Below, one piece after another: positions 47,147 through 55,540 of a stretch of DNA of 64,000 nt. This DNA is from Verrucomicrobiota bacterium (GTDB lineage Bacteria; Verrucomicrobiota; Verrucomicrobiia; Limisphaerales; CANJXF01). The stretch lies in contig JBBQRQ010000002.1 in NCBI GenBank assembly GCA_038214755.1, positions 32,001 to 96,000 of the forward strand, given 5' to 3'. The notes under the pieces are model-generated. The model worked only from the letters and a program-made list of their open reading frames with translations, had not been told where the DNA came from and made no database searches. The translations under genes were made by a program, and so were the position numbers. Each line of letters begins with the position of its first letter. Position 1 is the stretch's first letter.

Positions 47147-48541
47147 TCAGTCTTCAGCGCGCTCGCCATGCGGCGCCATCTTCACGAGCTTCGGATCGAA
47201 TTGGCCGATCGTTTCCACCAAGTCGGATTGCGCAGCCATGACCGTATGAATGTCTTTGTAAACCATCGGCGCTTCGTCAAGGCCAGCGGAAATGAGCGTC
47301 ACTCCGCGTTCGCGCAGAAATTGATTCACTGCTTTCCAATTGAAAGTTTGCGACGCGCGAGTGCGGCTCATGACACGTCCCGCTCCATGCGAAGCAGAAT
47401 GCAAAGATTCAGCATTCCCTTTTCCACGAACAACAAATCCGGGGGTCGCCATTGAGCCAGGGATTATTCCCAACACACCCGTGCCCGCTGGCGTGGCACC
47501 TTTGCGATGCACCACGACCTCACGCTCTACGCCCTCGATAACGTGCTTTTCTTTCCAGGCAAAGTTGTGGTGGTTTTCCAGATCGAGCAAGACCTGCGCG
47601 CCGAGATTTTCCGCGATGTGTTTATGAATGCAGGCGTGATTCGCGGCGGCGTATTGTCCCATCAATTCCATCGCGTTCCAATACTCCTGCCCTTCCTGCG
47701 AATCGAGCGACAACCACGCGAGCCGCTTCAATTCGCTCGGCAAATCGGGAAACTGGCTGAACGCGATCTTGCTGTAGTAATCGCAGACCGACGCGCCTGT
47801 GCCGCGACTCCCGCTGTGTGACAGCAACGCCACATAAGTGCCCGGTTCCAATTCGTTGATTTTCGAGTGCGCCGTGAATAGACCAAACTCGACAAAATGA
47901 TTGCCGCTGCCGCTCGTGCCGAGTTGCGACCACGCGCGGTCTTTGTTTTGTTTCGTAATTGGACTGACCGACCAGTCCGCGTCGAGCACGCCGTGGTGGC
48001 GACGCTCCTTGAAATTCGCGCCGATGCCGAAGCGCGTCTCCGCTTCGATGGCGCGCGTGAGCCGGTCCTGCTTGCGTTCCAGATCGCGCAACGGCAGATC
48101 GAGCACCGTCATCTTCATGCGGCACGCGATGTCCACACCAACGGCGTAAGGAATCACCGCGTTCTCGGTGGCCAGCACGCCGCCGATGGGCAGGCCGTAG
48201 CCCACATGCGCGTCCGGCATGAGCGCGCCCGCCACCGAGATCGGCAACAGACACGCCTTTTCCATCTGCATCACCGCCTCATGTTCCAAACCTTCGCCCC
48301 ATTGCCGATACTTCACCGGCTCGGCGCGCGGCGGCGGTGGCGCATGGAGCAACGCCTTCGCAAGCTCGCCGCGCAATGCGTCATCCACGAACGCCGCCGG
48401 ATTGGCGACAATGGCCGCGACATCTTCGTGCAACCGCGACTTGTCGCCGCCGCCGAGGATAAACTTGCAAACAAAATCCGTCGCGCGCCGGGTGGCCTCG
48501 CCGAGCGGAACTCCCGTTCGTAAAAAATCTTTCGCATTCAT
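47147..48541 (-). CDS. rtcB: RtcB family RNA ligase
   Basis: 'MPDAHVGYGLPIGG', 'VGVDIAC', 'GTSGSGNHFVE', 'HSGSRG', 'HHN', 'HRKGAT', 'PGSM', 'HGAGR', 'DEAP..YK'. Confidence 0.96.
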   Translation of the reverse strand: MNAKDFLRTGVPLGEATRRATDFVCKFILGGGDKSRLHEDVAAIVANPAAFVDDALRGELAKALLHAPPPPRAEPVKYRQWGEGLEHEAVMQMEKACLLPISVAGALMPDAHVGYGLPIGGVLATENAVIPYAVGVDIACRMKMTVLDLPLRDLERKQDRLTRAIEAETRFGIGANFKERRHHGVLDADWSVSPITKQNKDRAWSQLGTSGSGNHFVEFGLFTAHSKINELEPGTYVALLSHSGSRGTGASVCDYYSKIAFSQFPDLPSELKRLAWLSLDSQEGQEYWNAMELMGQYAAANHACIHKHIAENLGAQVLLDLENHHNFAWKEKHVIEGVEREVVVHRKGATPAGTGVLGIIPGSMATPGFVVRGKGNAESLHSASHGAGRVMSRTRASQTFNWKAVNQFLRERGVTLISAGLDEAPMVYKDIHTVMAAQSDLVETIGQFDPKLVKMAPHGERAED

Positions 48542-53881: not shown

Positions 53882-53917
53882 CGCCTGTTATTGAAAGTCA
53901 ACTTTCAATAACAGGCG
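53882..53917. promoter_or_regulatory. perfect 16-bp inverted repeat upstream of the second DUF4143 ATPase
   Basis: cgcctgttattgaaag-tcaa-ctttcaataacaggcg. Confidence 0.55.
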
Positions 53918-53945
53918 TTTAATGAAAACGCGATTCGCGCGCACC

Positions 53946-54203
53946 TCAGGCATTGAGGAACAGTTTCCACTCCGCGATGCCGTGCGCGTTTCGGATGAGC
54001 GCCGTCACCGGCAGTTCCTTCGGCGCGCGCGGAACGTTGAGCAATTTCAATACGGCTTCGTGCGGCAGGCGGTTGCCCTTTTTCGAGTTCACCGCTTTGT
54101 TCGCCCAGACGCAATTCTCCCACGCATCTTTTCCGCCGCGCGAACGTGGCAGGATATGATCGATACTGCCTTCCTCCGGCTTCAGAATTTTGCCGGTGTA
54201 TTG
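53946..54203 (-). pseudogene. HNH endonuclease, 5'-truncated
   Basis: 'QYTG.......SIDHILPRSRGGKDAWENCV......NSKKGNRLP'; upstream sequence is tRNA-like rather than coding. Confidence 0.85.
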
Positions 54204-54224
54204 GACCAGCCTCCCGGAATTGAA

Positions 54225-54302
54225 TGGTGCGGCAACCGGGAGTTGCACCCGGACGAACGGAAGACTTGCAGGTCGCCGCCTGGGCTACTCGGCTAATAGG
54301 AC
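54225..54302 (-). tRNA. chimeric/degenerate tRNA-like gene (Cys-GCA-like 5' half fused to a different 3' half)
   Basis: GTCCTATTAGCCGAGTAGCCCAGGCGGCGACCTGCAA|GTCTT...CCGGG-TGCAACT-CCCGG-TTGCCGCACCA; acceptor strands do not pair. Confidence 0.55.
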
Positions 54303-54310
54303 ATCAATCG

Positions 54311-54560
54311 TTACTCTCGGAAGTAATGATCGCGCCGACTTCCGTCATAGCAGCCAGACTGCAATCAACAATTTTTGAAAGCTGCGTCCTGAGCCGCACG
54401 AACAAAGATCGTTGCGTCCGAGCTTTTCATGAAGCTCCTTAGTTCCATAAACGATGCGGGAACCTTTTTTCAAGCGAGTTTCCGATGGATACCCTTTGCG
54501 ACGTTTGCTGGTGATCTCGAAAAAACGGGCTGTCTTGATGAACCGATTGATTTCCCTTAC
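54311..54560 (-). CDS. small SEC-C motif protein (recoded or pseudogene; absent from the ORF track)
   Basis: '[49 protein letters not shown]', then +1 frame '[20 protein letters not shown]'; 5' boundary uncertain. Confidence 0.7.
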
Positions 54561-54634
54561 GGCCTCCGGCTTAGGGGTTGTGGTTGTGAATAACTAATGC
54601 TTGAAATTTTTTCCTTCTAACGCGACAACAGAAC

Positions 54635-54757
54635 TGCGCGACGAACAGCTTTGATCCAAATACCGGCTTTGAGATCTTTGTGCCGGGGCGTGGATTGCTC
54701 CTCGGAGCAGTATTCCGCTTGCGGAAGCGCCTATCTCCTTTGAGCGTTCGCCGCGCA
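54635..54757 (-). ncRNA. candidate structured ncRNA
   Basis: 12-bp closing stem TGCGCGGCGAAC/GTTCGTCGCGCA enclosing three hairpins; lies just 3' of a tRNA-like gene. Confidence 0.55.
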
Positions 54758-54771
54758 TTTACTTTTTGAAT

Positions 54772-54848
54772 TGGTCAGGAAGCCGGCATTTGCACGCGGA
54801 CCGTCTCCTTCACAGGGAGAGATGCTGCTAATTACACCACGATCCTGA
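54772..54848 (-). tRNA. non-canonical tRNA-His(GTG)-like gene
   Basis: TCAGGATCGTGGTGTAATTAGCAGCATC-TCTCC-CTGTGAA-GGAGA-CGGTCCGCG-TGCAAAT-GCCGGCTTCCTGACCA; imperfect T and acceptor stems. Confidence 0.7.
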
Positions 54849-54945
54849 TTTGAGCGCGGAACGCAGAACGCGGAACGCGGAAAGAAAAACTCGCGCGCGA
54901 TTGATCTGATTTCCACGTTCCGCATTCCGAGTTCCGCGTTTGAAA

Positions 54946-55019
54946 TGCTCCCACGTGGACTTGCACCACGAACCTTCTCCTTCGCAGGGAGACATGCAGT
55001 TCTATTACACCTTGAGAGC
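54946..55019 (-). tRNA. non-canonical tRNA-Arg(GCG)-like gene
   Basis: acceptor GCTCTCA/TGGGAGC, anticodon arm TCTCC-CTGCGAA-GGAGA, T arm CGTGG-TGCAAGT-CCACG; A at position 8; no encoded CCA. Confidence 0.8.
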
Positions 55020-55115
55020 GGAAAGAAATTTACGATTTACGAATGACGATTTACGCGGGCAAATCCAAATCGTCAGCCGACTCGTAAATCGTAAATCCAA
55101 AATCGTAAATCGAAA

Positions 55116-55145
55116 TGGTATCCGTGGCCGGACTTGCACCGGCTA
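55116..55145 (-). tRNA. 3' half of a tRNA-like gene
   Basis: GCCGG-TGCAAGT-CCGGC-CACGGAT-A-CCA; 5' half missing. Confidence 0.65.
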
Positions 55146-55260
55146 GGTGGTGGAGATGAAGCGGTCGCGGAAACGTTTTAAAACGTCGCAAATAAAAGGA
55201 GCGGCATGACGGTGAATGAGTTGTTGATATTTTTCATAGCGGGAAAGTGGCCGGAACCCT

Positions 55261-55386: not shown

Positions 55387-55421
55387 GCTACAAATCTGAG
55401 TCGTGGCGACGGCGCGCTGCT

Positions 55422-55494
55422 CGTAGCCGCCGACGTGAGGAGGCGGATTCCGATCGGAAAACCACGAAACCGCCTCCTCACGTCAGCGGCTACA
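55422..55494. repeat. GTAG-type REP doublet
   Basis: gtagccgccgacgtgaggaggcgg ... ccgcctcctcacgtcagcggctac. Confidence 0.8.
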
Positions 55495-55540
55495 ACTTAT
55501 GAAATTTTGATGGAGCGCGAACCAGATTTTTCCCGGAGAT

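Follow-up and report, generated by a model that had tools for sequence, protein, structure and literature searches.

Does a short gene whose parts lie in different reading frames represent a broken sequence or an unusual way of being read? This question is raised by a stretch of 64,000 nucleotides from a Verrucomicrobiota bacterium, here called the window, which carries on its minus strand a mini-gene for a SEC-C zinc-knuckle protein. An earlier note on this DNA had described the mini-gene as needing three decoding exceptions, namely initiation without ATG or GTG, one +1 shift and the decoding of a TGA codon, and had proposed either a pseudogene or a translation-fidelity sensor placed in an RNA-repair operon. 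All of the features named in the note were found to be present, in what we consider a decayed copy of the gene. The exceptions are not of equal standing, however: the +1 shift is conserved, whereas the AAG at the start position and the TGA are private decay, and the family appears to use one kind of exception, two to four +1 slips. Of the two proposals, the pseudogene fits the window copy; for the family, the shifts are conserved and selected, and the sensor role is what we infer.

Reading frames of the window copy

The main open frame starts at 54593 (minus strand, as for the other features of the gene) and contains neither ATG nor GTG; its sole TTG, at 54473, lies within the conserved part, as the note had stated. 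The Shine-Dalgarno (SD) sequence GGAGG, whose position had been given one base off, occupies 54563..54567 (read from 54567 to 54563) and stands 4 nt ahead of the start position (54556..54558), which is ATG in the closest relatives and AAG here, a private lesion. The arrangement of GGAGG, spacer and start is the same in close relatives. The leader that follows in the start frame has 12 codons (54523..54558) and places the start 37 nt before the conserved core, the modal distance of the family. A +1 shift at CCG-TTT-TTT-C (site A, 54519..54528) links the start frame to the main frame; this second conserved shift, near the start, had been missed when a single one was assumed. The middle segment (54378..54521) encodes the basic KRRKGYPSE motif and the first half of the SEC-C knuckle, and it contains two private replacements, V>L (54473-54471) and P>S (54401-54399).

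The middle frame runs past the next TTT-C unshifted for 10 more residues, and this unshifted half matches Pfam SEC-C at E 6e-4, slightly below the cut-off, over profile positions 1-13 of 19. As had been claimed, the motif is completed only by a +1 shift at AGC-TTT-C-AAA (site C, 54374..54383), where the +1 frame gives a 21-residue SEC-C completion. The C-terminal segment in that frame spans 54311..54376, including the final TAA (54313-54311). The TGA at the last Cys of CxCGSGxxxKxCC is also where it had been described (54365..54367, read from 54367 to 54365), and it is a private nonsense change. The next codons in the unshifted frames are CGA/TTT at the leader and CAA at site C. No second copy of the mini-gene was found in the host genome, the only other strong match being a 22-residue knuckle on contig C21.

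A Logan contig of depth 27 from run X1 spans 53900-55111 with zero differences from the window. Because of this identity, neither the AAG nor the TGA can be put down to a single assembly, and assembly error was rejected as the origin of the lesions; run X1 is the probable source run and may be the source sample, so its support is not independent.

Serial +1 shifts across the family

Homologues were sought with the middle segment as the query, which matched in 8 of 61 related genomes and in 44 of the 401 genomes of the window's order; the best 80 matches in named genome contigs and the best 80 in metagenome contigs were also taken in. From these 198 loci, 50 with a frame-neutral alignment score below 150 (knuckle-only matches, for example SecA ends) and 8 duplicates were dropped, which left 140 loci, the window and 139 homologues. 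One locus, L004 of the unpublished genome G009, is a single row in the alignment and in the start-codon, pN/pS and TTT-Y counts, was left out of the neighbour-ORF scans and of the shift-number and tree analysis, and carries no claim by itself. According to record titles, the named hosts include Verrucomicrobia, Acidobacteria, Alpha-, Beta- and Gammaproteobacteria, Gemmatimonadota, Planctomycetota and others, and several are cultured isolates, RefSeq records among them; Caulobacter, Sphingobium and Novosphingobium are represented. The distribution is patchy, with 3 of 81 genomes in the genus of locus L016 in addition to the 44 of 401 in the order. Viral contigs yielded no relative, plasmids none at E 1e-8, and phage records only knuckle-length YecA-like matches, in 5 records. 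A description of the family was not found in the open-access full-text literature, subscription papers being outside this scope. In Snodgrassella alvi (L024, L026, L036), the mini-gene has three shifts and lies between ffh (SRP54) and a class I aminoacyl-tRNA synthetase, neighbours having been scanned in L024 only.

At site C, between the anchoring cysteines, 124 of the 139 homologous loci are shifted by +1, and the junction is TTT-C or TTT-T in 122 of them; the junction seen in the window therefore recurs, which the note had proposed as a check. Homologues typically start with GGAGG and ATG or GTG, usually 37 bases ahead of the conserved core. In the 125 homologues with an SD-led ATG or GTG, the start is offset from the core by +1 in 102, in frame in 23 and in the third frame in none, and 101 of the 102 have TTT-Y in the start frame (site A). 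Other +1 sites recur near alignment columns 30, 57 and 66. With an aligner that penalised +1 and -1 equally, the gene bodies contained 228 +1 events and 8 -1 events; an in-frame TTT-Y occurs at 210 of the 228 +1 junctions, compared with 8 of 1114 background windows. The 18 body shifts away from TTT-Y include CTT-C, GGG-C, AAA-A and CC(T/G)-N.

In 57 disjoint pairs, pN/pS was 0.12 before site C; after it, the ratio was approximately 0.25-0.26 for the +1 frame and 1.18 for the unshifted one; third-position variability past site C likewise tracks the shifted frame. Purifying selection on both frames, another check that had been proposed, is thus borne out (0.12 before, 0.26 after). Of the hallmarks of programmed +1 frameshifting, a conserved site, selection on both coding segments and a P-site codon able to re-pair are found in this comparison, by which recoding at the level of the family is well supported.

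No zero-shift gene was found among the 133 loci with an assignable start; the leader walk behind this count and behind the shift numbers permits shifts only at TTT-Y, whereas the start-offset counts assume nothing. In the 122 complete homologues without -1 events, one shift is required in 1, two in 56, three in 61 and four in 4, that is, two to four shifts in 121 of the 122. The variance of the shift number is 0.33, compared with 0.81 under site permutation, which gives about 12 genes with one shift or fewer, and on a short-alignment tree the minimum changes at sites B, C, D and E are 7, 6, 13 and 15; because the loci are related by descent, the permutation and tree figures overstate significance. 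Among the genes unshifted at the leader site, 21 of 22 carry a terminal site instead, and three genes unshifted at site C have two leader shifts each, the second one being new. The alignments show that an intact gene consists of three to five segments, each one base further on, with joins nearly always at TTT-C or TTT-T, and that the join positions are gained and lost between lineages while their number holds at two or three. Single-shift alleles may exist: L005 is one among the 122, and the database protein P0005, continuous from Met through the knuckle and known from its protein record alone, may have one terminal shift only. A protein search returned many database proteins that are unbroken through the knuckle, known as proteins only, most of which stop in F where a later site falls.

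At the Phe-Pro position, where TTT-C must stay unshifted, it was observed in 8 loci and expected in 15.4 from neighbouring ORFs (n=50). Because these eight loci keep an unshifted TTT-C, the alignments indicate that local sequence alone does not dictate the shift. The next codon in the unshifted frame is a stop in 31 of 122 cases at site C, 29 of 101 at site A, 9 of 30 at site D and 21 of 53 at site E; at sites A and D, the codon found most often in this place is CGA. Transcriptional slippage was also considered and rated unlikely, because most shift sites carry just three or four T.

How could such a gene be expressed? Bacterial ribosomes are known to shift readily by +1 at UUU_Y (PMC5009743), in agreement with the earlier statement that UUU-C lets tRNA-Phe re-pair in the +1 frame. 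In Salmonella, scarcity of Gln-tRNA makes a UUU-CAA reporter slip at the tRNA-Phe of the P site (PMC3617221), and UUU-CAA is the same pair as at the knuckle site C of the window. We propose that, when a stop codon or CAA, CGA, CAG or CCG keeps the A site waiting, the peptidyl-tRNA-Phe in the P site would move from UUU to UUY. Because all of the serial slips must succeed, the yield would scale approximately with the square or the cube of the slip rate, and the full protein would be made only when decoding is slow or inaccurate, through cleaved, uncharged or under-modified tRNA or through ribosome-targeting stress. In Anabaena, translational stress induces L-arrays and rtcB (PMC8421152), and loss of the repressor of the tRNA-array/rtcB regulon raises +1 shifting (PMC10272220). 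It is from the UUU_Y slip data and the stress-induced L-arrays and rtcB that a serial gate opening at slow A-site filling is proposed; a sensor role of the mini-gene is plausible.

Junctions at codons other than those for Phe were observed after Pro codons (L056, L130, L137), at CTT-C or CTG-C (L057, L058, L061, L131, L133, L135, L136, L138), at GGG-C (L060, L062) and at AAA-A (L045, L129). These junctions suggest that the gate would sense slippage generally and not tRNA-Phe alone.

To our knowledge, the programmed frameshifts of bacteria have one site each. The CUU_UGA of prfB takes a +1 slip at a slow A site. The mini-gene would resemble prfB in a +1 slip at a slow A site, often a stop codon, and in a likely use as a sensor; it differs in that no conserved internal SD was seen by eye, the A-site stop occurs in part of the family only, and the sites are several and movable. 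The prfB shift serves the autoregulation of RF2 (PMC5009743). The UUU_Y sites described in the passages cited from the same source, the argI error site, Yersinia yopN-tyeA and the UCC_UUU_CGU of influenza PA-X, are like those of the mini-gene, as proposed here, in that P-site tRNA-Phe re-pairs from UUU to UUY (PMC5009743). However, each of these has one site and a minor alternative product, whereas the mini-gene has two to four serial sites that would all be needed for one conserved product. More than one frameshift per gene, as in the mini-gene, is found in Euplotes and mitochondria (PMC5009743), but there it is a genome-wide decoding habit, whereas here it concerns a single small bacterial gene that has spread horizontally among genomes of ordinary code.

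The shifts could also be programmed events that occur efficiently and constitutively, with the nascent peptide or the mRNA as stimulator, and that serve only to keep the protein scarce. The same comparative data would fit, and some unshifted TTT-C sites hint at context effects, but we believe this to be unlikely. The codon 5′ of the shift-site TTT varies widely, no conserved internal SD 5′ of the shift sites was seen by eye in the junction lists, and the sites move freely along the gene. Moreover, a weak start would be a simpler route to scarcity, yet a strong SD and ATG are kept.

The encoded protein and its neighbourhood

An intact gene has approximately 80 codons. Its basic product carries a KRRKG(Y/F)PSE motif, followed by a SEC-C zinc knuckle with all four Cys and by a short tail, and the median net charge over the core is +9. 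The four knuckle columns hold Cys in 136, 138, 138 and 139 of the 139 homologues. The four ligands of CxCGSGxxxKxC(C/H), by which SEC-C (PF02810) is recognised, are present in the homologues and incomplete in the window copy, where the last Cys is TGA. The knuckle GRNDxCxCGSGxxFKxCC is common to the mini-protein and to SecA, YchJ and YecA, and it matches 9l6b_C, 1sx0_A and 1ozb_I by sequence. Only these approximately 22 residues match: the full-length domain found ahead of the knuckle in SecA, YchJ and YecA is absent, and the mini-protein, unlike them, stands alone and has a conserved basic N-terminal motif and a tail of its own. All NCBIfam scores are far under the cut-off, ESM Atlas returned only SEC-C clusters, and the database entries for the mini-protein are fragments only, named 'SEC-C protein' or 'YecA'. 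An AlphaFold2 model from a 31-row alignment of naturally continuous homologues has a mean pLDDT of 58 and is confident at the knuckle only; with this model, Foldseek gave no match at E 0.001. The GeneTack cluster 'Preprotein translocase subunit SecA' (PMC3711429) was considered as the same family and rejected, the two inserts shown there being SecA C-termini. A promoter scan gave none above chance.

ArfA is a small basic protein made only when tmRNA rescue fails. The mini-protein is likewise small and basic, and its expression would likewise hinge on a translation fault; a sequence relation to ArfA was not found, and its gate would be serial frameshifting, compared with the non-stop mRNA of ArfA.

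In the closest relatives, the mini-gene is part of a long tRNA array, in which Phe, Glu, Arg(GCG), Thr and His precede it and Cys follows. A co-oriented tRNA run with rtcB/HNH neighbours is seen in relatives (10 tRNAs in L089), and only remnants are left in the window, all on the minus strand. They are a 3′ fragment of tRNA-Glu (55113..55147), which is a whole tRNA in L090 and L175; tRNA-Arg(GCG) (54946..55019; 48.4 bits), whose encoded CCA end is lost; a decayed tRNA-His(GTG) (54772..54847) with two T-stem mismatches and 19.2 bits, compared with 34-39 in four relatives; and a remnant of the tRNA-Cys(GCA) that follows the gene in relatives (54225..54300), uncalled by ARAGORN or Rfam. On the 3′ side lie a fragment of an HNH endonuclease (53946..54248, minus strand), then DUF4143 ATPases, an ATP-dependent RNA ligase (PF09414; 51714-52454), the YhcG nuclease and RtcB (47147-48541). 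The ligase and RtcB have the same minus-strand orientation as the mini-gene, and they are separated by DUF4143 ATPase and YhcG cassettes.

Several further features of these arrays were observed. Between tRNA-His and the mini-gene, a non-coding element (54635-54757, minus strand) has a long closing helix and two inner arms, with a fold of -55.8 kcal/mol for 168 nt and no shuffle control; similar stretches occur in L186, L003 and contigs of runs X2 and X3, without an Rfam match, and the element may be a structured RNA that goes with the array. Upstream of the array remnants, 55420-55496 is a long near-perfect inverted repeat with sub-threshold Rfam miRNA matches, probably a repetitive palindromic element. 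The inter-tRNA spacers (55027-55112 and 54850-54935) contain short tandem-like units of the GATTTAC- and GCGGAAC-type, with high-depth matches in unrelated contigs. The array tRNA-Phe(GAA) genes of L005, L009, L090, L091, L175 and L181 have G37 for A37, and the T loops of array tRNA-Phe(GAA) genes are of the TGCAA/CGCGA type instead of TTCGA.

Across the 140 loci, a same-strand tRNA within 1.5 kb was found at 51 with a relaxed threshold. Of the 126 downstream ORFs, the 114 scanned encode TROVE in 16, RtcB in 6, SPFH in 5, RNA ligase in 1 and HNH in 1 (29 of 114), and of the 105 upstream ORFs, the 89 scanned encode RtcB in 1 and SPFH in 1 (2 of 89). The 16 TROVE neighbours are confined to the window's own order, and in other phyla the mini-gene is often found among unrelated genes. 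The association with RNA-repair and tRNA-array loci is therefore real but partial, and the place in an RNA-repair operon that had been suggested holds to this extent. Within the window's order, the mini-gene lies inside an array of the kind described as stress-induced L-arrays with rtcB, HNH and slipin genes (PMC8421152, PMC10272220), beside His/Thr/Arg/Cys tRNAs, TROVE, SPFH, RtcB and HNH. In the main texts of those papers, a SEC-C or zinc mini-gene was not found by the terms searched (PMC8421152, PMC10272220). Unlike L-array genes, most homologues of other phyla are located away from arrays. Tentatively, the product would probably serve a tRNA-array/RtcB/Ro60 stress response as an accessory that binds RNA or ribosomes.

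With RtcB encoded by 6 and TROVE by 16 of the 114 next ORFs scanned, the mini-gene might be thought to act chiefly in cis, such that only fully slipped ribosomes reach the last stop and turn on the downstream gene; antibiotic-induced frameshifting of ermCL is a precedent (PMC5009743). We consider this improbable. The neighbours are mostly unrelated and varied, the next element in close relatives is a tRNA, and the conservation of the amino acids, the four Cys included, is far tighter than a leader needs.

A dedicated frameshift-suppressor tRNA-Phe of the array that decodes UUUY as four bases is very improbable. G37 is present in 6 of the 9 same-strand array tRNA-Phe(GAA) genes listed, and the genome's housekeeping tRNA-Phe has A37, as such a suppressor might lead one to expect. 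However, the anticodon loops of the array tRNA-Phe have 7 nt, tRNA-Phe(GAA) lies within 1.5 kb at just 7 of 140 loci, unshifted TTT-C occurs in the same genes, and one query, of limited reach, found no full-length array-type counterpart in G000 or in four other genomes that carry the gene.

Probable decay of the window copy and a proposed meaning of slip number

The start codon is ATG at 117 of the 140 loci, GTG at 11, ATA at 4 and AAG at 1, the window, with none assignable at 7. ATA stands at the SD-spaced start position in L047, L055, L092 and L180, either as decay or as weak initiation, and non-ATG starts are thus not unique to the window copy. The column of the TGA holds Cys in 139 of 139 homologues, and this TGA is the only in-frame stop among the 140 aligned loci. 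The recurrence of the missing ATG and of the TGA in homologues, which the note had raised, is therefore not seen. Three private changes at near-invariant columns (V>L, P>S and C>stop) are likewise found in the window and in no other locus, and 114 loci have none. Its pN against eight relatives is 0.143, twofold the 0.073 of the relatives among themselves, and its profile score is 406, compared with 449-499 in nine close relatives (the profile was built with the relatives and without the window).

Selenocysteine at the TGA, for which a SECIS search had been suggested, was rejected. SelA and SelB were unfound and the top tRNA-Sec match is tRNA-Ser(TGA) in a genome that is 97% complete, such that absence is unproven, and no alternation of UGA with Cys occurs among homologues (Cys in 139 of 139, TGA in 0). 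Because the missing ATG and the TGA are unique to the window among 140 loci, and are joined by two further private changes, and because SelA, SelB and tRNA-Sec were not found in the genome, the comparison indicates that they are private decay and not programmed, and that the window copy is most likely a pseudogene.

It is scarcely credible, and was already disfavoured, that the window copy is alive, with the non-ATG start and UGA readthrough (or selenocysteine) as extra programmed checks. The SD and its spacing are intact, four homologues have ATA starts, and the pN/pS of the window against its relatives is still 0.21; in addition, loss of TrcR in Anabaena raises odd initiation, shifting and readthrough together (PMC10272220). 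Against these points stand the AAG and the in-frame stop, each found at 1 of 140 loci, the three private changes of the window alone, the decayed flanking tRNAs and the selenocysteine machinery unfound in the genome.

The note had also allowed that all homologues might be continuous, ATG-initiated frames with the paired Cys; the loss of the start and the TGA did prove private to the window, but the homologues are themselves shifted. That the whole family consists of pseudogenes or sequencing errors, as the patchy distribution and the few alleles with -1 events or ATA starts might suggest, is effectively refuted by the excess of +1 over -1 events (228 vs 8), the recurrent TTT-Y sites, the purifying selection on each downstream segment and the presence in cultured isolates.

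We consider it likely, from these comparisons, that the window holds the pseudogene of a gene with serial frameshifts, whose basic zinc-knuckle product would probably be made when decoding at the A site is slow. On this view, both the start codon and a zinc ligand have since disappeared from the window copy, which is decaying together with the surrounding tRNA array. More tentatively, it is quite possible that this is a slip-counting gene found across phyla, in which two or three movable UUU-Y +1 sites form a steep switch for an RNA- or ribosome-binding zinc-knuckle protein; this protein would be produced only upon a collapse of A-site decoding, such as tRNA cleavage might cause, and would then act in RNA repair or ribosome rescue. 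Selection would then act on the number of slips and not on their place, and the window copy would be a fossil of such a gene. If this is true, it would represent a new use of frameshifting as a non-linear sensor, in which two to four obligatory slips are kept across phyla, their positions swapped and their number held. The mini-gene would then be a natural reporter of frame maintenance, and it would draw attention to a small protein of tRNA-array and RNA-repair loci that lacks annotation.
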